Under the pieces are notes generated by a model, which was not told where the DNA came from, searched no databases, and saw only the letters and a list, made by a program, of their open reading frames with translations. 64,000 bases of DNA from an uncultured Gemmatimonadales bacterium (GTDB lineage Bacteria > Gemmatimonadota > Gemmatimonadetes > Gemmatimonadales > GWC2-71-9). Location: assembly GCA_963821525.1 (NCBI GenBank), contig CAWGED010000004.1, forward strand, positions 288,001-352,000. Direction: 5' to 3'. Position numbers and translations under genes: made by a program. Below are positions 6,855 through 58,576 of the stretch, piece by piece (the first letter of the stretch is position 1; every line of letters starts with the position of its first letter).

Positions 6855-6967
6855 GTCTTGGGTCTAAGGTCTTGAGTCTAAGGTCTAGAATCCAAATCGC
6901 TCGGACGTCTCATGTCGCATCTCACGTCTCACGTCTCACGTCTCACGTCTCACGTCTCACGTCTCAC
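6855..6967. repeat. Two heptamer arrays: GTCTWRR x5 (6855-6889) and TCTCACG x6-7 (6920-6967)
   Basis: Read directly; the second array contains the stop codon of the ArsR gene. Confidence 0.95.
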
Positions 6968-11141: not shown

Positions 11142-11240
11142 GGAAGCTCCTACGGGAGAAAGACTTCCCCAATCTAGGCCGACCAGCCCCTACCGCCAGA
11201 GCGGGCCCTCCCTTTATAGTTGTGCGCGATTTAACTGGTC

Positions 11241-11312
11241 AGCGGTGAGCGGTGAGTGGTAAGCGGGACACGGTTCCCCCGGCCCGCTCACTGCTTACCG
11301 CTCACCGCTCAC
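11241..11312. repeat. Inverted heptamer arrays (AGCGGTG / CACCGCT) in the efp leader
   Basis: AGCGGTG AGCGGTG AGTGGTA AGCGGG ... CCCGCT CACTGCT TACCGCT CACCGCT. Confidence 0.9.
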
Positions 11313-29720: not shown

Positions 29721-30179
29721 ATGTCCCTGATGTTGCGCCGTTTCGCTCCTGCCAACGATCTGCTTGGCGTGCGCCGGCTGAATGCGCTGCTGGACGAGGC
29801 CTTTACTGGTTGGCCGGTTGGTAATGGAGTCGCGCCGTCCGCGTGGCTGCCGTCGGTTGACGTCTTCGAGGACAAGGAGAGCCTTAAGATCGTGGCCGAG
29901 TTGCCTGGCCTGAAGCCCGAAGATGTGAAGATCACCCTGGAGAACAGCACCCTCACCCTGCGTGGCGAAAAGAAGCAGGTCGCAGAAGAGAAGACCGAGC
30001 GGGTGCACCGCTATGAGCGGAGCTATGGCAGCTTCGAGCGGTCGTTCTCCCTGCCCAACACCGTCGATGTCGAGAAGGTGGAGGCCGGGTTCGAGAACGG
30101 GGTGCTGACGATCACCCTGCCGAAGGCGGAGAAGGCGAAGCCGCGGGAGATTGCGGTGAAGCCGGCCGTCAGCCGCTAG
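29721..30179 (+). CDS. Hsp20/alpha-crystallin small heat-shock protein
   Basis: GGAGG RBS; PSVDVFE, AELPG, ERSYGSFERSFSLP, NGVLTITLPK. Confidence 0.95.
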   Translation: MSLMLRRFAPANDLLGVRRLNALLDEAFTGWPVGNGVAPSAWLPSVDVFEDKESLKIVAELPGLKPEDVKITLENSTLTLRGEKKQVAEEKTERVHRYERSYGSFERSFSLPNTVDVEKVEAGFENGVLTITLPKAEKAKPREIAVKPAVSR

Positions 30180-30309
30180 CCGTCAGCCGTCTAGCTATTA
30201 GCTGTTAGCTGTACCTCAAATAGAAACCCTCCGTGCCATTCACCGGAGGGTTTCGTTTGTTCCGGAACCGCTAACCGCTAACCGCTAACCGCTAACGGCT
30301 GACGGCTAA
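30165..30309. repeat. Inverted heptamer arrays (GCYGTYA / AACCGCT) around a terminator
   Basis: Left 30165-30213, right 30266-30309; both flanking stop codons lie within the units. Confidence 0.92.
30223..30260. terminator. Intrinsic terminator between hsp20 and the convergent ALDH gene
   Basis: GAAACCCTCCG..CGGAGGGTTTC followed by GTTTGT. Confidence 0.8.
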
Positions 30310-31759
30310 TACCACCCGATCGGCGCCTCATCCAAATTGATGTACACCTGCTTCGTCTCCATGTACTCCTCTACACCCCAGTGGCCGAGTTCGCGGCCGA
30401 AGCCCGACATCTTGTAGCCGCCCCACGGCGCCTCCAGCATGGTGGGCTGCATGTGATTGACCCAGACCACTCCGGCCTCGAGGCTCTTCACCACCCGGAA
30501 TGCCTTGAAGATGTCACGGGTCCACACCGCCGCCGCGAGCCCGTAAGGCGTGGCGTTGGCGATCTCGATCGCTTCCGCCTCGTCTTTGAACGGGATCACG
30601 CTCATCACCGGTCCGAAGATTTCTTCCTGCGCGATCTTGGCGTTGTTGTCCACGTCGTAGAAAATGGTAGGCTCGACGTACCAGCCCTTGTCGAATTGTC
30701 GGGCACACCGCCGCCCGCGGCGACCTTCGCCTCCTTCCGACCGATGGCCTGGTACTTCACCACGCGGTCTCGCTGTTCCGCGCTGACCAGCGGCCCCATC
30801 TTGGTGTCCCGCTCGATGCCCGGTCCCAGCTTGATCGTCTTGGCCTTCGCGGCGCAGGCCTCGACGAACTTCTTGTAGATGTCCTTCTGGACCAGCACGC
30901 GGCTCCCCGCTGAACAGACCTCGCCCTGGTTGATGAAGGTCCCGAACAGGGCTCCGTCCACCGCGGCTTCGAAGTCCGCATCGGAGAAGAAGATGTTGGG
31001 AGACTTGCCGCCCAGCTCCAGCGAGACTCGCTTCAGCTGATCCGAAGCGTTCCTCATGATCAGCTTGCCGACCTCGGCCGAGCCGGTGAAGGCGATCTTC
31101 CGGATGTCGGGATGGACCACGATGGGCCCGCCGGCGTCGGGGCCGAGTCCGGTAACGATGTTCACGACACCCGGTGGAAGCCCGATCGCCTCGAAATCCT
31201 TGGCAAGGTCGAGCAGGGAGAGCGGCGTCTGCTCGGCGGGCTTGATGACCACCGTGCAGCCGGCCGCCAGGGCGGGTCCGAGCTTCCAGGCGGCCATCGC
31301 GAGCGGGTAGTTCCAGGGGATGATCTGCCCGGCGACACCCATCGGCTCCTTCACCGCGAGCACCATGGCGTTGGTCGGAACCGGAATCACTTCGCCGTTG
31401 ATCTTGGTGGCGAGCCCGCCGTAGTACTCGAAGCAGGTCGCCGAATCATCCATGTCGTATTCGGACTCGACGATCGGTTTGCCGGAGTTGAGGGTTTCGA
31501 TCTTGGCCAGCTCGTCCCGTCGGGCCCGGACCCGTTCGGCGAGCCGGATCAGGATTCGGCCTCGCTCCTGGGCGGAGGTGTTCTTCCATCCTCCATAGAA
31601 CGCCTTCTTGGCCGCCTGAGCCGCCTTGTCGATGTCCTTTGCGTCTCCGGCGGGGCAGGTGGCGATCACTTCCTCGGTGGCGGGATCGTAGACGTTGAAG
31701 GTCTTGCGGCTGGTCGCGTCGACGAATTTTCCGTTGATGAACATTTGGTACTTGCTCAC
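30306..31759 (-). CDS. Aldehyde dehydrogenase (betaine/aminobutyraldehyde type), frameshifts near 30660-30700
   Basis: IIPWNYP, KPAEQTP, FTGS, LELGGKSP, QGEVCSAG, EEIFGP, PWGGYKMSG. Confidence 0.93.
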
Positions 31760-31769
31760 GATGGGCTCC

Positions 31770-31817
31770 GAGTCGGAGAGTCTGAAGTCTGAAGTCTGGA
31801 GTCTGGAGTCTGGAGTC
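31770..31817. repeat. RAGTCTG x5-6, left flank of the four-helix-bundle gene
   Basis: Read directly; ends at the ALDH RBS on the minus strand. Confidence 0.95.
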
Positions 31818-31915
31818 AAAGACAGCTCGCCATCCATCATTGGAGGCCGCGTATTTATGCCTACCGGTGCAATCGAAGGATTAGCTCCATCAATACTCCA
31901 GGGGCAGCTTCAGAG

Positions 31916-32296
31916 ATGGGCGATTTCAAGAGCCTTCGCGTCTGGAAACGATCCTATGCTCTGAGTCTCGGCGTCTACAGAGCAACGAAAGACTTCCCGG
32001 CCTCAGAATTGTACGGCATGACTTCCCAGCTTCGACGCGCGGCCGTCTCTATCGTATCCAACATTGCCGAGGGATGCGGCCGAGCCGGAGACCCGGATTT
32101 GAGACGATTCCTGAAGATTGCGCGCGGGTCGCTTTTCGAGGTGCAATGTCAGCTCTTGCTCGCCGTAGATCTAGGGTACGGTAATAAAGACTTGCTCGCT
32201 CAACTCGAACTCGAAACACGCGAGATCAGCCTGATGCTCCACTGTCTGATTCGGTCTCTGAAGTCGGGAGTAGGGGGTCGGGGCTCGGGAGTCTGA
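31916..32296 (+). CDS. Four helix bundle protein (23S rRNA intervening-sequence protein/Avd-like family)
   Basis: FKSLRVWKRS..VYRATKDFP..ELYGMTSQLRRAAVSIVSNIAEGCGR..FLKIARGSLFEVQCQL. Confidence 0.95.
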   Translation: MGDFKSLRVWKRSYALSLGVYRATKDFPASELYGMTSQLRRAAVSIVSNIAEGCGRAGDPDLRRFLKIARGSLFEVQCQLLLAVDLGYGNKDLLAQLELETREISLMLHCLIRSLKSGVGGRGSGV

Positions 32297-32345
32297 AGTC
32301 GGGGAGTCTCCAGACCCCAGACTCCAGACTCCAGACTCCAGACTA
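32255..32345. repeat. Right flank: degenerate RRGTCGG x6-7 followed by inverted CCAGACT x5
   Basis: Read directly; CCAGACT is the reverse complement of the left-flank AGTCTGG. Confidence 0.95.
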
Positions 32346-33933
32346 GCTGTCCCTCAAAATCTCCCTTGCCGCATTGTATCCACACGCTCCCATGACCCCG
32401 CCGCCGGGATGGGTCGCGGCGCCGCACATGTATAGCCCCTTGATCGGAGTACGGTAATCGGCGTAGCCGGGAACCGGCCGCATGAACGAAAGACTGGACA
32501 GCGACATCGTTCCCTGCATGATATTTCCGCCGGTCAGTCCGAAGCGGGTCTCGAGATCGGCCGGGGCGAGCACCTGGTAGTTGATCACCGCTTTCCGGAA
32601 GTTCGGCGCGTACTCCGTCATGATGTCGATGCAGCGCTCGGCATAACGCTTCTTGTTTTCCTCCAGAGTTCCCGCATCCGGCGCGAGCTTGTAGGGGAAA
32701 TACTGGGTGAACATCGACATCACGTGCTGCCCCTTGGGAGCCACCGTGTCGTCCAGCGAACTGGGGATCGTAGCCTCGACGATCGGATTCTCCGAGATGT
32801 AGCCGTACTTGGCGCGATCGAATGCCTTCTCGATGTAGTCCCGGGTGGGGCAGAGGTGGATCGTGCCGCGGTGCTGAGGTCCCGCGGTATTCCCGGGCAG
32901 ACAGGTGAAATTCGGCACCTCGGACAGCGCCAGGTTCACCTTGCAGCTCGCGCTGGCGTAGTCGAGATGGCGGACCGAATCCGCAAAGTCGGTCGGCAGC
33001 TCCTTGGGATCCATCAGCTGCAGGAAGGTGACGTGCGCGTCGACTGAAGACACGACCTTTGCGGCCCGATACTCGGTGCCATCCTTCATCGCTACTCCGA
33101 CAGCGCGCCCACCGTTGGTGAGAATTCTGGCGACCGGGGCATTCACCTTGATCTCGGCGCCTTTTTCCTTCGCGGCGGACGCGATCGCGTTACTGAGTCC
33201 ACCCATCCCGCCGCGCACGTATCCCCAGACTCCGCGTACCCCGTCGCACTCACCCATCACGTGGTGGAACAGCACATAGGCCGTTCCCGGCATCGAAGGA
33301 GTGGCGAAAGCGCCGATGATCGCATCGGTGGCGATCGTCGCCTTGACCTCTTCCGATTCGAACCAGCGATCGAGGATCGGATTGGCGGCGCCGGTAAGAA
33401 TCTCGACCGCCTTCTGTCCGTCGGTGCCGAGTTTCTTGAAGGCGAGTCCCAGCTTGAGCAATTGAAGCAGGTTGCCCGGCGCCATGGACCAGGGATTGGG
33501 CGGGGTCTGGACCAGCGTCGGCTCCAGGAAGTCGGCGACTCGCTCCAGCATCGCCTCATACTTGGGAAGCGCCTCGGCATCCTTCTTCGAAAACTTGGAT
33601 ACCTCCCGGTGAGTCATCTCCTTGTCGGGACCCATCAGGAGATACCGGCCGTCGGGGAACGGGCGTGAAGCTCGACGGGCTCCGGGGCAACATGGCGAAG
33701 CCGTGCCGCTTGAGCTCCAGGTCTCGAATGATCTCGGGACGGAAGAGGCTGTTGACGTAGCTGGCAGTCGAGACCTTGAAGCCGGGCCAGAGCTCCTCGG
33801 TCACGGCGCAGCCGCCGACCAACTCGCGCCGCTCGAGAACCAGCACCTTGCGTCCGGCGCGGGCGAGATATGCGGCGGTGACCAAGCCGTTATGGCCACC
33901 GCCGATGATGATGGCATCGTATTGGTTGGACAT
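32343..33933 (-). CDS. Phytoene dehydrogenase-like FAD oxidoreductase, frameshift near 33660
   Basis: YDAIIIGGGHNGLVTAAYLA, VRGGMG, LTGGNI, LYMCGAATHPGGGVMG. Confidence 0.9.
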
Positions 33934-34176: not shown

Positions 34177-34259
34177 AATTGCAGATTGAAGATTTCAGAT
34201 TGAAGATTTAAGGAACTTCTGCCTGCAAATCTTCAATCTGAAATCCTCAATCTTCAATC
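34177..34259. repeat. Inverted heptamer arrays (GATTGAA/GATTTCA vs TTCAATC/TGAAATC)
   Basis: Near-perfect ~30 bp stem; contains the potC stop. Confidence 0.93.
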
Positions 34260-36064: not shown

Positions 36065-37196
36065 CCGGCCATGTGATGGTCAGAGTAGCATCCCGTTCGG
36101 GCGGCGGCTGTTCCGCGGGCCAATGCAGCACCAGGGAACCGGCACCCTCCACCGTCGTGTGTACCCGGGTTATCACACCGGTAAAAATCACATCTACCAC
36201 CCGAACCGGCAGCCAATGGGAACCATCGCCCGAGGTGACCGCATAAACGTGCTCCGGGCGTACGGCCAGCCAGGCCGGCTTACCCTCTTCCCACGACTTG
36301 GTCGCGGTGGCATCGAACTCGCGCCCCCCAATCGTGAGCCGGGCGGCCGAGCCGCCCAACCGCCGAGCCGCGGTCGTCTGCAGGAGATTGGTCTCACCAA
36401 TGAAATCAGCGACGTAACGGGAAACCGGCTCCTCGTACATCTCGCGTGGTCCACTCAACTGCTCGATCCGTCCGTTCCGCATCAGGGCGATGCGGTCGGA
36501 CATCGTAAGCGCCTCTTCCTGATCGTGGGTCACGTAAATGAAGGTGATCCCCAACCGCTTGTTGAGCTGTTTCAATTCGAGCTGCATCTCCTTGCGCAGC
36601 TTCAAATCGAGTGCGCCGAGCGGCTCGTCCAGCAGTAGGACCCGGGGGCGATTGACCAGGGCTCGGGCGAGCGCGACACGTTGCTGTTGCCCTCCGGAGA
36701 GTTGGCGGGGGGCCCGCTCTCCCAGATGACCGAGCTGGACCATCTGCAGCGCCTCTTCCACCCGCTTCCCGATTTCCGCTTTGGGGACTCCCCGCATGCG
36801 CAGGCCGTATCCCACGTTGTCCCGCACACTCATGTGAGGGAACAGCGCATAGGACTGGAACACGGTATTGATGTCCCGCTTGAAGGGAGGGAGCGGCGTG
36901 ATCGACGTGCCCTCCATCAGAATTTCGCCGGACGTCGGCCGCTCGAATCCGGCGATCATGCGCAGCGTCGTGGTCTTTCCCGAACCCGAAGCGCCGAGGA
37001 AGGTCAGGAACTCTCCGGCCGCGATATCGAGCGAGAGATCATCGACGGCGGTGAACGCGTCGAAGCGCTTGATGAGGTGGCGGAGCTCGAGAATGGACGG
37101 GATGATGCGGCTCAGAGCTGAAGGTTGTGGGTAGTGGGTGGTGGGTGGTGAGGGTGAAGGCCAAGGTTCCAGGACCCCACCACCTGCCACCCACAA
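36036..37196 (-). CDS. potA: Polyamine ABC ATPase (start uncertain, conserved part begins near 37100)
   Basis: [47 protein letters not shown]. Confidence 0.92.
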
Positions 37197-38552: not shown

Positions 38553-39905
38553 ATGCCCCCCGTGATTGATCTCAAGACGGCCATTCCCGGCCCCAAGAGC
38601 CAGGCCCTGAACGCCCGCCGTGCCAAGGCAGTTCCCCGCGGCGTGCCTTCAACTACACCGCTTGCCGTAGTCCACGCAGAGAACGCCGTTTTAACCGACG
38701 CGGACGGGAACCGGCTGATCGACTTCGGTGGCGGCATCGGTGTGGTGAACGCCGGCCACCGGAATCCCCGGGTGGTCGAAGCGGTCCGGCAGCAGCTGGA
38801 TCACTTTACTCACGTCTGCTTTCCGGTCTCCACCTACGAGCCTTACGTGGAGCTGGCCGAGAAGCTCAACGCGCTCACCCCCGGGGGACACGAGAAGCGC
38901 ACCTTCTTCGTGAACAGCGGGGCGGAGGCGGTGGAGAATGCCGTGAAGGCGGCCCGCCATTTCACCGGCCGCCAGGCGATCGTCTGTTTCGAGCACGCCT
39001 TCCATGGGCGCACCTATCTCGCCATGGCACTCACTTCGAAGGTGATGCCGTACAAGAAGGGCTTCGGGCCGTTCGCGCCCGAGGTTTACCGGATGCCGTT
39101 TCCCTACTGCTACCGCTGTGCACAGGGCGGACAGGGCGGGAAGGGTGGAGGTGGCTCGTGCTGCATGGCGAGCCGCGAATACCTGGAGCAACAGTTCGCG
39201 GCGATGGTGGACCCGCAGTCGGTCGCGGCGATCATCATGGAGCTGGAGCTGGGCGAAGGCGGCTTCGTTCCGGCACCGCCCGAATTCGTAAAGACCCTCG
39301 CGGCTTTCGCGAAGGATCACGGAATCCTGTTTATCGCCGACGAGATTCAGACCGGATTCGGGCGCACTGGGAAGATGTTCGCCAGCGAACACTACGGTCT
39401 GGTGCCCGATCTGATGACGACGGCCAAGTCATTGGCGGGCGGGTTGCCGCTCGCCGCGGTCACCGGCCGGGCCGACGTTCTTGAGTCGGCGCAGCCGGGT
39501 GGGCTGGGCGGTACCTATGGTGGGAACCCGCTGGCCTGCGCGGCAGCGCTCGCGGTACTCGACGCCATGAAGGAAGATCGGCTGGCCGAGCGCGGGGCGA
39601 AGATCGGAGAGCGAATTCGTGTCCGCTTCCAGAAATGGGCAGATCGCTTCCCCCAGGTAGGCGACGTCCGGGGACTCGGCGGAATGATCGCGGTGGAGCT
39701 GGTCACCGACCGGACAACCAAGGCCCCCGCCAAGGAGTTGACCGGCAAGCTCCTCGCGGAGGCACTCAAGCGCGGTGTGATCCTGCTCTCCGCCGGCACG
39801 CTGGGGAACGTGGTGCGAGTGCTGGTCCCGCTCACGGTAGAGGACGCGGTACTGGATGAAGGGCTGGATGCGATGGAGCGGGCGCTCGAGGTGGTGGTGG
39901 GGTGA
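38553..39905 (+). CDS. gabT: 4-aminobutyrate aminotransferase
   Basis: DFGGGIGV, NSGAEAVENAVK, FHGRT, DEIQTGFGRTG, AKSLAGG, GGLGGTYGGNP. Confidence 0.9.
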   Translation: MPPVIDLKTAIPGPKSQALNARRAKAVPRGVPSTTPLAVVHAENAVLTDADGNRLIDFGGGIGVVNAGHRNPRVVEAVRQQLDHFTHVCFPVSTYEPYVELAEKLNALTPGGHEKRTFFVNSGAEAVENAVKAARHFTGRQAIVCFEHAFHGRTYLAMALTSKVMPYKKGFGPFAPEVYRMPFPYCYRCAQGGQGGKGGGGSCCMASREYLEQQFAAMVDPQSVAAIIMELELGEGGFVPAPPEFVKTLAAFAKDHGILFIADEIQTGFGRTGKMFASEHYGLVPDLMTTAKSLAGGLPLAAVTGRADVLESAQPGGLGGTYGGNPLACAAALAVLDAMKEDRLAERGAKIGERIRVRFQKWADRFPQVGDVRGLGGMIAVELVTDRTTKAPAKELTGKLLAEALKRGVILLSAGTLGNVVRVLVPLTVEDAVLDEGLDAMERALEVVVG

Positions 39906-40025
39906 TCGTCGATGGTCGATAGTCGATGGTCGATGGCCGCGAGTCTTGAGTCGCGATTCCATTAACTCTCGGCCACCCTCCAAGCCTGACGACCCGAGAC
40001 CATCGACCATCGACCATTGACCATG
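39903..40025. repeat. Inverted heptamer arrays (CGATGGT / GACCATC) running from the gabT stop to the next ATG
   Basis: TGATCGT CGATGGT CGATAGT CGATGGT CGATGGC ... GACCATC GACCATC GACCATT GACCATG. Confidence 0.95.
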
Positions 40026-43835: not shown

Positions 43836-45186
43836 GTGCGGTTGCCCGACAGTGAGGTCCTGAAGCAGAGCGAGCGCTACCTCCGGCTTATCGGCGGGGC
43901 GGAAATGTCATTGGAGGAAAAGCAGGCCTTCATCACCGAGACGGTGGAGGCCTACGAGCAGTACGTCAACCGCGGGTTCATCGGCTACCGCAAGTCGGTC
44001 ACCGAGGCCGGACAGTTCGCGGCGCTGGAATGGTCGGGCCAGGGTTCCTTTGCTGCGGGATCTCCTCGGCCGGGAATACATCGACTGCCTGGGCGGGTAC
44101 GGCATCTTCAGCGCGGGGATCAACCACCCGAAGATCGTGAAGGCGGTGACCGACCAGATGCAGCGGATGGCGCTCAACAGCCAGGAGCTGCTGGAGCCGT
44201 GGCGGGCCGCACTCGCCCGGTTGCTCTCGGCGGTTACTCCCGGACGACTCCAGAACTGCTTCTTCATCAACAACGGAACCGATGCCATCGAAGGCGCGAT
44301 CAAGCTGGCCCGCCTTCACACTCGGCGAAATACTTTCGTCTCCACGCTGGGCGGCTTCCACGGCAAGTCGATGGGCTCGCTGTCGCTGATGGGAAAGGCC
44401 TCATTCCGGGAGCCGTTCCTGGGCGGTCTGCAGGACGTACGCTTCGTGCCCTACGGCGACGCCGAGGCGCTCGAAGCCGAGCTGGCCAAGGCGGAGCAGG
44501 TCGGCACGCCAATCGCGGCGTTCGTGGTCGAGCCGGTGCAGGGAGAGGCAGGCGGCGTGGTTCCTCCTGACGATTACCTGCCGCGGGTGCGCGATCTCTG
44601 TACCCGCTTCGGTACTCTCATGGTCGCCGACGAGATCCAGACCGGTATGGGTCGCACCGGCCGGCTCTGGGGTGTGGACCACTGGGACGTCCAGCCCGAC
44701 ATCCTCTGCGTCGGCAAGTCGATCGGCGGCGGCGTCATGCCGCTTTCCGCGTTCATCTCGACTCCCGAGATCTGGGAGGTGCTGATCCCCAATCCGATCA
44801 TCCACTCGACGACTTTCGGAGGGAATCCGATTGCCTGTGCGGCGGGAATCGCTGCGATCCAGGTGACGTTGGAGGAAGATCTGCCCGGCCAGGCCGCGAT
44901 GAAGGGAGACTTCCTCCTCGCCGAGCTGCGCGGGCTGATGCAGCGATTCCCCCAGATTCTGAGCGACGTCCACGGCAAGGGCCTGTTGATCGGAATGGAA
45001 TTCCACAGCGATCCGATCGGCTGGAAGTGCGCCTCCGGTCTGTTCAAGCGGGGCGTGCTGGTGGCCGGCACCTACTCCAAGGCCCGCACGATCCGAATCG
45101 AACCGGCCCTGGGCATCCCGATGGATCTGCTGAAGGAGATGCTGGGGAGGTTGGAGGACACGTTGAAGGAGATGGAAAAAGCGTGA
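43836..45186 (+). CDS. patA: Putrescine aminotransferase, frameshift near 44050
   Basis: YVNRGFIGYRKSVT, IDCLGGYG, FHGKSMG, EPVQGEAG, DEIQTGMGRTG, HSTTFGGNP, TIRIEP. Confidence 0.88.
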
Positions 45187-45304
45187 GACGTGAGACGTGA
45201 GACGTAAGAAAGAGAAGGGGTGGTTGAGCCGGTGATGCCGGCCCGCCACCCCTTCTCACCTCTTACTTCTCACGTCTTACTTCTCACTTCTCACTTCTTT
45301 TCTA
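45183..45304. repeat. Inverted heptamer arrays (GTGAGAC / TTCTCAC) extending a central hairpin between convergent genes
   Basis: Runs from the patA TGA to the CTA of the opposite gene; core GAGAAGGGGTGG..CCACCCCTTCTC. Confidence 0.93.
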
Positions 45305-56353: not shown

Positions 56354-56417
56354 CTTGGAGCCGTCAGCCCCAACTCGGAACTCGGACTCGGTACTAGGTA
56401 CTAGGTACTAGGTACTC
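56352..56417 (+). repeat. Heptamer arrays AGCYNNN x3, AACTCGG x2-3, TACTAGG x3
   Basis: Begins at the M14 TAG; the unit drifts along the array. Confidence 0.88.
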
Positions 56418-57088: not shown

Positions 57089-58576
57089 ATGCGACTATTA
57101 CGTCCTGCCATGGCGGGCCTGCTGCTTCTTGCCGGCGCCGCACCGCTTGCCGCGCAAAAGCCCGGCGCTGTTGAAATCGGCGTTTTTGGCCGGTTCAACA
57201 GCACAGATCCACAGCTTAATTTCGACAACCGAACCGGTATCGGCGGACGGCTCGGCGTCTTCTTTGCACAAAACCTCGCGGTTGAAATTGATGGGTCCTA
57301 CAATCCGCTGTATACAGCCGAGGGCGATTTCGTTCGGTATATCCCGTGGCATGCCGGGCTGGTCTACAACATTGGGGTCGGGTCGACTTCCGCGTTTCTG
57401 ATTGGAGCCCGCTACACCGACAACTGGTTCCGTGAGGCCTATCGGGAGACCGAACACGGCATCGGCGGACTTCTCGGTTTCCGACTGGGCACCGGGGGGA
57501 CGCTCTCCATCAGAGTCGATGGTACGATCGACTACATCTTCAATCCCGAGAGCCGCTTCAGTCAGGGTCCTCCGATTGGTGTCCAGGGAATCCCCAGCAT
57601 CGAACAGGACGACAAGAACCTTCACTACGGCGTCCAGGCCGGACTTAGCCTCATGTTCGGGGGGTACAACAAGGACTCCGACAAGGACGGCGTACTGGAC
57701 AAGGCGGATCAGTGTCCCAATACGCCGACCGGTGACAAGGTCGACGCCAACGGGTGTTCGCTTGACTCCGACGGCGACGGCGTGAAGGACGGTCTCGACC
57801 AGTGTCCCAGCAGCCCGCCGGGAGACAAGGTCGACGCTAACGGCTGCTCGCTCGATACCGACAAGGACACCGTTCGCGACGCGATCGACAAGTGCGCGGA
57901 CACTCCTGCCGGTGATAAGGTGGACGCCAACGGCTGCTCGCTGCCGAAGGATGCCGACGCTGACGGTGTGACTGACGATGTCGATCAGTGCCCGAGCAGC
58001 GCGCCCGGAGACAAGGTCGATGCCACTGGCTGCTCGCTGGATACCGACAAGGACGGCGTACGTGATGCAATAGATCAGTGCCCCGACACGCCGGCGGGTG
58101 ACCAAGTCGATGCCAACGGCTGCTCGGCGGACAGCGACAAGGATGGCGTAAGCGATGCTAAGGATCGCTGCCCCAACACCCGTCCGGGTGCCAAGGTAGA
58201 CGAAACGGGCTGCGAGTTGTTGTTTGAGCAGACCGAACGCGGATTGGTGCTCGAAGGGGCAACCTTCGCCACCGGTAAGACCACACTGACCGCGGCCGGC
58301 AAGGCATCGCTCGACAAGGTCGCCGTGGGCTTGGTGGATAATCCCGGAGTTCGGGTGGAGGTCCACGGTTACACCGACAACACTGGCTCGAAGGCCGCCA
58401 ACGACAGGGTGTCCAAGCAGCGGGCCGAGTCAGTGAAGAAGTACCTGGTTACGAAGGGTGTCACCGCCGACCGTATCGATACCTATGGCCATGGCCCTGA
58501 AGAGCCCATCGCGGACAACAAGACCGCGGCGGGACGGGCCCAGAACCGGCGGGTCGAGTTGCGGAAGGCGCCGTAA
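57089..58576 (+). CDS. OmpA family protein: beta-barrel + 6 TSP3-like repeats + OmpA C-domain
   Basis: DxDxDGVxDxxDxCPxxPxGxxVDxxGC x6; GYTDNTG, NRRVE. Confidence 0.93.
   Translation: MRLLRPAMAGLLLLAGAAPLAAQKPGAVEIGVFGRFNSTDPQLNFDNRTGIGGRLGVFFAQNLAVEIDGSYNPLYTAEGDFVRYIPWHAGLVYNIGVGSTSAFLIGARYTDNWFREAYRETEHGIGGLLGFRLGTGGTLSIRVDGTIDYIFNPESRFSQGPPIGVQGIPSIEQDDKNLHYGVQAGLSLMFGGYNKDSDKDGVLDKADQCPNTPTGDKVDANGCSLDSDGDGVKDGLDQCPSSPPGDKVDANGCSLDTDKDTVRDAIDKCADTPAGDKVDANGCSLPKDADADGVTDDVDQCPSSAPGDKVDATGCSLDTDKDGVRDAIDQCPDTPAGDQVDANGCSADSDKDGVSDAKDRCPNTRPGAKVDETGCELLFEQTERGLVLEGATFATGKTTLTAAGKASLDKVAVGLVDNPGVRVEVHGYTDNTGSKAANDRVSKQRAESVKKYLVTKGVTADRIDTYGHGPEEPIADNKTAAGRAQNRRVELRKAP

Follow-up and report, generated by a model that had tools for sequence, protein, structure and literature searches.

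A four-helix-bundle gene cassette bounded by inverted heptamer arms: evidence from related genomes for its movement as DNA

A gene of the PF05635 four-helix-bundle family, enclosed by inverted arms of tandem heptamers, was analysed in a 64,000-nt stretch (the window) of the genome of an uncultured Gemmatimonadales bacterium (G000). As far as can be read from sequence, comparison with related genomes has shown that this cassette moves as DNA, by arm-bounded exchange and by duplication, and that its slots are conserved across congeners while the occupants change. The reading favoured here, at a probability of roughly 0.55, is that of a selfish DNA cassette lacking a transposase, the ring protein of which would recognise its own arms and aid break repair from a donor cassette through a chemistry that we infer. 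All the genomes compared are metagenome assemblies, so that the comparison is one of assemblies and chimeric contigs are possible.

Anatomy of the locus and its protein

The cassette gene is sandwiched in antisense between two co-oriented minus-strand genes (Table 1), as the original prediction had described and as both open reading frames and profile matches indicate. The two genes lie in a neighbourhood of polyamine-uptake genes. The inverted heptamer arms expected around the gene were recovered as well: both have a period of 7, and over 37 nt they are 92% complementary and 492 nt apart. The downstream arm covers the final two bases of the stop codon of the oxidoreductase, and a 16-nt spacer lies between the upstream arm and the ALDH start. 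The sole gene between these terminal repeats is the PF05635 gene, with no transposase gene there, and the G+C content of the cassette is 56% against 64% for the window. The leader yielded 0 matches to the sigma-70 consensus. The GGAG motif proposed as the ribosome-binding site of ALDH is present here but is not kept in G001, G003 and G004.

Table 1. Features of the cassette and its two neighbours (window coordinates)
Feature	Position	Strand	Remarks
ALDH gene, PF00171	30605..31762	-	start GTG 31760-31762; downstream in operon
Spacer, 16 nt, GGAG 6 nt ahead of ALDH GTG	31763..31778	-	folds as small hairpin
Upstream arm, 5.7 tandem 7-nt copies, AGTCTGR family	31779..31817	+	inverted-arm match spans 31779-31815
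Leader of cassette gene, ~100 nt, presumed own promoter	31818..31915	+	
Four-helix-bundle gene PF05635/TIGR02436, 126 aa	31916..32296	+	
Third, degenerate array, same orientation as upstream arm	about 32257..32304	+	encodes tail and stop
Downstream arm, 5.3 copies, reverse complement of upstream arm	32308..32344	+	
FAD-dependent oxidoreductase, CrtO/phytoene-desaturase-like	32343..33933	-	stop 32343-32345; upstream in operon

The third array does encode the tail and stop codon of the protein, as had been noticed at the outset. Since this repeat-encoded tail occurs in just two of five same-site genes, those of G000 and G001, its distribution identifies it as a read-through into the repeats. Taken with the downstream arm, the third array is shaped like a nested hairpin without a gene.

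Both operon genes carry a frameshift. The one in ALDH lies near 30696, with the C-terminal part in an ORF at 30306-30653, and is found in 0/5 relatives covering the site; that in the oxidoreductase lies near 33664, giving ORFs at 33556-33933 and 32343-33635, and is found in 0/3 relatives covering the site. Because they are absent from relatives, and because G003 and G004 carry private indels of their own, these frameshifts are probably indel errors of assembly. Elsewhere in the window, a coding repeat of period 90 with D-x-D-x-D-G-V motifs (57711-58195) presumably resembles the thrombospondin type-3 repeats of OmpA-family proteins.

The predicted four-helix-bundle (23S-IVP/Avd-like) identity of the product is upheld by matches above cut-off to PF05635 (123.7 bits against 33.8) and TIGR02436 (120.7 against 24), and its closest named homologs come from Gemmatimonadales. 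Its AlphaFold2 model has a pLDDT of 96.6, with helices at residues 8-26, 29-54, 58-86 and 91-114, and superposes on Xcc0516 (2GSC) with a TM-score of 0.95 at 42% identity. The anticipated likeness to Avd of diversity-generating retroelements (DGRs) is likewise apparent from the model, with TM-scores of 0.77-0.79 at 10% identity. Six polar residues (E31, Q38, R41, S45, E52 and E75) are invariant across 43 sequences. To our knowledge, no catalytic activity is known for the PF05635 family, which counts against the favoured reading. Comparison with same-site genes gave dN/dS of 0.14-0.18, and 21 of 24 pairs fell within 0.02-0.33, the remaining 3 being saturated; purifying selection on the gene is shown by these substitution ratios. 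By analogy with the five chains of 2GSC, with Avd and with the S23p family, described as a toroidal homopentamer in passages of PMC4990558, the cassette protein may form a homopentameric ring.

Movement at conserved gene junctions

At the same junction, the gene is 93% identical to that of G000 in G001, 74% in both G003 and G004, and 48% in G011, where the unit is another one. The empty site sought at the oxidoreductase-ALDH junction of relatives did not turn up in clean form: G002 holds a 128-nt gene-less hairpin of a different heptamer between flanks that are 93-94% identical. In G016 the junction is filled by an unrelated insert without arms.

Informative sites were counted as grouping G000 with G001 or, alternatively, with G003. 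The ratio is 27:127 for ALDH and 17:32 for the oxidoreductase, hence 44:159 outside the arms, against 121:20 for the cassette inside them (Fisher p 8e-34). Between G000 and G001 the dS of the cassette gene is 0.17 and that of the flanks 0.56-0.68, while between G000 and G003 the values are 1.15 and 0.18-0.30, respectively. The leader over 31800-31899 is 98% identical to that of G001 and 71% identical to that of G003, although the latter is the closer genome. The breakpoints lie within about 50 nt of the arms; a co-conversion of ~50 nt into the ALDH start is possible (5:1 sites, in a window chosen post hoc). The first codons of ALDH vary with the junction allele (VSKY, MATY, VQRY and MREY; window 31751-31762, orthologs L002-L006), so that an exchanged element brings a changed downstream start with it.

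Among the slots common to G000 and G003, a replaced gene (63-77% identity) was found in 4 of the 8 that were measurable, with flanks 89-96% identical. G003 itself carries two copies of a cassette 7 kb apart, which are 92% identical with homology running exactly from arm to arm; both lie directly behind a TAG, and G004 has no cassette at one of these slots. Eight distinct slots (from 13 rows, after dropping one low-identity mapping and one degraded copy) are filled in relatives but gene-less in G000, where they hold mostly a gene-less hairpin or a remnant, one being clean. Over about 800 kb, the elements of G000 faced in G003 a similar unit (26), another unit (18), a clean site (2) or no called element (13), with 6 left unmapped, and new units are sometimes nested inside old arms. 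Inspection by eye of 4 clean-site rows revealed no evident target-site duplication. The arm-bounded swap between species and the arm-to-arm duplication substantiate the transposase-less insertion unit that had been proposed.

In the favoured model, the unit would consist of (heptamer)n, leader, four-helix-bundle gene and (inverted heptamer)n, settling just behind host stop codons and being copied or exchanged arm to arm. A pentameric ring could bind its own heptamer arrays, at about five units per arm, and thereby mark the junctions that bear hairpins. Host recombination might then use a donor cassette to mend a break at the hairpin or cruciform, the arms serving as primer and homology. The gene-less hairpins would represent a non-autonomous or collapsed state, standing to the cassette as REPINs do to RAYT.

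Arms, gene-less hairpins and protein lineages

G000 contains 13 PF05635 matches. Its tandem arrays comprise 459 of period 7 and 93 of period 8, while the other periods between 4 and 12 have 3-25 each, and 42 inverted elements were counted in real DNA against 0 in 600 kb of shuffled DNA; the inverted heptamer layout is far above chance. Gene-less inverted hairpins number 286 in 87 unit classes, and 13 other arrays belong to the unit family of this cassette. Further period-7 arrays in the window (6855-6967, 11237-11312, 30165-30309, 34178-34253, 37123-37150, 39904-40024, 45182-45298 and 56373-56417) are mostly gene-less inverted hairpins, each with a different unit. The long-loop inverted pairs of G000 enclose either cassette genes or host genes that, on inspection by eye, lie between two hairpins separate from each other, and other cargo inside heptamer arms was rejected on this ground.

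Heptamer arms, the presence of which on paralogs had been put forward as a check, flank essentially all of them: G000-G004 and G011 contain 67 PF05635 matches, of which 59 had flanks long enough for the arm test; 56 of these carry inverted arms, against 3/150 random controls. Across phyla, 74 of 80 sampled homolog loci had enough flank, and arms were found at 62 of them (59 of period 7) against 0/70 shifted controls. Within the bacterial family of G000, arms occur at 27/28 testable loci from 15 further genera, and 13/61 genomes show no PF05635 gene. It is scarcely credible, therefore, that the gene is a passive passenger that merely tends to land in microsatellite hairpins made by slippage: intergenic heptamers are indeed common in several bacteria, as passages of PMC4692102 report, but arms accompany about 85-95% of homologs in many phyla, including genera nearly without gene-less hairpins, and the tracking of protein lineage by the unit contradicts such a role.

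In a tree of 62 proteins over 105 columns, many forks of which are weak, clades share a unit type across loci, and one clade (support 100/99) has 8-9-nt units at several loci. Furthermore, the similarity of arm 4-mers rises with protein identity in Mantel tests dereplicated at 70% identity, both within the family (rho 0.14, p 0.015, n=33) and across phyla (rho 0.25, p 0.0005, n=38), values that kinship inflates. The suggestion that the protein is tied to its repeat is thus sustained indirectly, and coupling of the repeat unit to the protein lineage is shown at the level of sequence, which co-inheritance can also bring about. The 13 cassette units of G000 cover 45% of its gene-less hairpins with one mismatch allowed, whereas random sets from other lineages cover 20% on average and 40% at most; base composition and ancestry confound this overlap.

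The loops of gene-less hairpins have a median score of 6 for same-unit and different-unit pairs alike. Unrelated same-unit loops are not what plain copying from a master element would lead one to expect, and this point counts against the selfish-cassette reading. MITE-like copying of hairpins was rejected on the unrelated loops, with the exception of a REP-like family nested in 16/226 of them. Local spreading was rejected as well, neighbouring hairpins having the same unit in 14/268 cases against 16.5 in shuffles.

An alternative that we consider unlikely would have the repeat written de novo, in which the protein and a host polymerase or transferase act in a telomerase- or terminal-transferase-like manner on both ends of a break; the joined ends would form inverted same-unit arrays around whatever lies between, and the cassette would only benefit. 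This agrees with 286 gene-less hairpins that share units and not loops and show no spatial clustering, with arms nested as new unit within old, and with a loop that stays homologous while the unit changes in 5/17 different-unit site pairs. A new hairpin of this cassette's unit family at a site clean in G003 also speaks for it. The coverage of gene-less hairpins by cassette units (45% versus a mean of 20%) points the same way but has the confounders named above, and slippage with hairpin-templated correction could homogenise arms too. Passages of PMC10053308 describe PF05635 as homologous to, or resembling, Avd and describe Avd, the structural relative, as a polymerase cofactor; against this, no reverse transcriptase (RVT_1, PF00078) was found in G000 (81% complete), G001 (98%), G011 (100%) or G066 (99%), each of which has 12-13 PF05635 genes. 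A DGR or reverse-transcriptase partner was rejected, as no RVT_1 accompanies the genes. Partial matches to SbcD were obtained in 4/5 genus genomes, above cut-off in 1.

Gene-less hairpins mostly adjoin stop codons, and convergent junctions, as called with the author's own codon model, are enriched for them (60/215 versus a background of 11.8%, p 2e-10). Such placement would suit a domesticated regulatory role, an improbable reading in which the hairpins act as bidirectional terminators or RNA stabilisers, a ring binding heptamer RNA in a TRAP-like manner tunes them and its own expression, and congeners exchange alleles through homologous recombination of the ordinary kind. The slots kept across congeners and the purifying selection on the gene accord with it, but recombination of that kind sits poorly with breakpoints that keep to about 50 nt from the arms instead of falling far inside the neighbouring genes, and with duplication to a new site. 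The G-U pairs of hairpins show no bias to the transcribed strand (108 versus 107), 13/61 family genomes do without the gene, and a bloom of hairpins occurs in only 1/9 genera sampled, all of which weigh against regulation.

The bloom itself was sampled as inverted elements: four genomes with 7-13 genes yielded 1 in 400 kb, four gene-less ones, taken at contig starts, 0 in 389 kb, and G003 together with G004 83 in 800 kb; the sample includes no genomes with 1-3 genes. Because hairpins number 0-1 per 100 kb in genomes of other genera that have 7-13 genes, a PF05635 gene alone is insufficient for a bloom, a further point against the selfish-cassette reading; gene count was rejected as a predictor of hairpin density outside the genus of the cassette.

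Genes of other families in G000, namely GxxExxY, GIY-YIG and Y1, mostly have inverted arms of their own, likewise. GxxExxY genes (PF13366, PD-(D/E)XK-like predicted nucleases; G000:C5:948723, C4:251119 and C8:120644) have arms of periodic units of about 9 nt, and stand-alone GIY-YIG genes (G000:C12:227017, C8:283051 and C5:845162) have REP-like palindromes on their flanks. Gene-less copies of this GIY-YIG REP-like element are found inside 16 heptamer-hairpin loops of many unit types. Two Y1 transposase loci with REP palindromes (RAYT-like; G000:C12:7145 and C1:35924) are near-identical, reflecting a recent copy or a duplicated contig region. A cassette with 8-mer arms is also present in two near-identical copies (G000:C4:415161-415727 and C9:23-625), one with many indels, and is possibly one locus assembled twice.

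RNase III, stem pairing and known systems

The outer arms had been proposed to pair and to loop out about 490 nt, and a predicted 37-bp stem with 492 nt between its arms would allow this. RNA of the operon strand folds this stem (z -3.8; 0/20 shuffles equally stable), with 32-36 expected pairs on either strand, the 36 being those of the operon strand, and the geometry permits relief of polarity by looping-out as a possibility. The alternative local hairpin envisaged from the third array fell away: on both strands it has ~0 expected pairs, compared with 32-36 in the outer stem. All three arm mismatches read as G-U on the operon strand. Across 139 hairpins between co-directional genes, however, G-U pairs numbered 108 on the sense and 107 on the antisense strand; selection on the stems as RNA of one strand was rejected, and without a genome-wide strand bias the G-U mismatches at the cassette locus are not evidence. 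In the RNA sequencing runs screened, at most 0.13 of the words were present.

An RNase III domain was not found in G000, in any of 5 genomes of the genus or in any of 61 of the family (47 of them at least 90% complete), by a search positive in 8-9/14 controls. Across the phylum sample, it was found in 0/104 genomes of families f1-f8 (besides G000) and in 15/16 of f9-f12, so that its loss is apparently lineage-wide in f1-f8; the freely accessible main texts searched contained no report of RNase III loss in this phylum. As RNase III was not found in the family, excision from mRNA as for 23S intervening sequences (IVSs) is unlikely in the lineage of G000, and processing of an mRNA intervening sequence by RNase III in G000, as first supposed, is not supported, on this count and on the lack of G-U strand bias. 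The wider version of that idea, in which the stem is cut by RNase III or looped out so that stop meets ribosome-binding site and polarity is avoided, is very unlikely. It can draw on the 36 expected pairs and three G-U mismatches of the operon strand, on the heptamers (GACAGAT) that passages of PMC4990558 place in tandem in the RNase III-cut stem of the Coxiella burnetii 23S IVS, and on RNase III-positive relatives with co-oriented, short-leader cassettes. Apart from the missing enzyme (0/61 in the family, 0/5 in the genus) and the even strand usage genome-wide, it leaves DNA-level swapping unexplained, and an excised piece of the operon strand could not express a gene that is antisense to it.

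The downstream neighbour lies on the opposite strand in 12/12 G000 copies with a neighbour, in 44/49 called in the genus and G011, and in 16/24 from 15 other genera of the family, whereas it lies on the same strand in 54/65 across phyla and in 10/12 in a family of this phylum that possesses RNase III; these calls are crude and composition-based, undecided rows being excluded. Antisense placement inside an operon therefore holds here as predicted, but it is specific to the lineage and no family-wide rule. The median leader from arm to start measures 105 and 93 nt in the bacterial family of G000, versus 37 nt across phyla and 26 nt (n=7) in the RNase III-positive family. The data fit a contrast between sense, promoter-less cassettes with RNase III and antisense, self-promoted ones without it, which amounts to one evolutionary contrast. 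Under the selfish-cassette model, the unit would ride sense and promoter-less in RNase III-positive hosts, where it could be cut from RNA like a 23S IVS, and in the lineage without detected RNase III it would have its own leader and mostly face against the operon. Internal stops were seen in 7/15 cassette-gene matches of the RNase III-positive family (L292, L297, L299, L301 and L302; G087 and G089), more than in the family of G000.

The Coxiella IVS offers a close layout in having a PF05635-family protein in the loop of a long terminal stem with heptamers (428 nt versus about 570 here). Unlike it, the cassette lies at an mRNA gene junction, in antisense and with a long leader; purifying selection acts on its gene, and its swapping at the DNA level is seen in a host without detected RNase III. 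The long terminal stem of 23S IVSs is thus shared, whereas their rRNA location, an ORF on the transcript strand and RNase III excision are not; an Rfam scan at 20 of the 80 sampled homolog loci found no rRNA or other family nearby. The cassette generalises the ORF-bearing intervening sequence of rRNA to a form that is free and mobile. Insertions in CPR rRNA also contain the PF05635 domain, according to passages of bioRxiv 10.1101/2024.02.27.582315. The same PF05635/TIGR02436 family includes Xcc0516 (2GSC) and BT_0352 (2RLD), for which the literature searched gave neither a function nor a tie to repeat arms. DGRs share the fold through Avd (4DWL, 8UB7), but G000 is without a reverse transcriptase and no template or variable repeat was seen.

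In REPIN/RAYT systems and REP-type elements, a small gene lies inside its own inverted repeats and many gene-less hairpin derivatives occur at gene ends. This resembles the cassette gene within its inverted repeats and its many gene-less hairpins. As to a protein that binds or cleaves its own repeats, the cassette offers the indirect coupling of unit and protein. The cassette differs in lacking a Y1/HUH transposase, in arms of tandem 7-9-mers that are not palindromes and in unrelated loops, while 4/4 Y1 genes of G000 have palindromic, non-heptamer arms. Insertion sequences and MITEs are comparable in DNA mobility bounded by terminal repeats, but the cassette has no transposase, its same-unit loops are unrelated and no target-site duplication is evident. 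A survey of 2007 reportedly noted an excess of heptamers. Passages of PMC4692102 describe intergenic heptamers, often in convergent inverted pairs, in Xanthomonas (GGGAATC) and Nostoc (GGGGA(T/C)T), with one unit per genome and, in those passages, no mention of a 'helix bundle', unlike the 87 gene-tied unit classes of G000. Passages of PMC4679880 show no link to arm-flanked PF05635 genes, and no description of arm-flanked PF05635 cassettes outside rRNA was found in the freely accessible main texts searched.

A broader proposal, tentative and on the doubtful side, is that PF05635 rings are specificity subunits of an undescribed repeat-writing and homing system, each protein lineage specifying a 7-9-nt unit that is laid symmetrically at gene junctions. 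Such a system would make and refresh the intergenic heptamer hairpins of bacteria and move its own gene between them without transposase or reverse transcriptase. It would include the 23S rRNA IVSs as one particular instance, and a rider that was sense and promoter-less would have turned antisense and self-promoted when RNase III was lost.

The present findings tie a very large protein family without an assigned function to the excess of intergenic heptamer repeats in bacteria. What is new is that alleles of sister species reveal, in their assemblies, movement of the unit as DNA, the breakpoints lying at the arms; RNase III is no longer a requirement for such units. Furthermore, the apparent absence of RNase III in most of the phylum sample, the flipped orientation and the leader length together constitute a natural experiment on the tolerance of such elements, and the question of whether the protein binds, or writes, its own heptamer has become directly testable.
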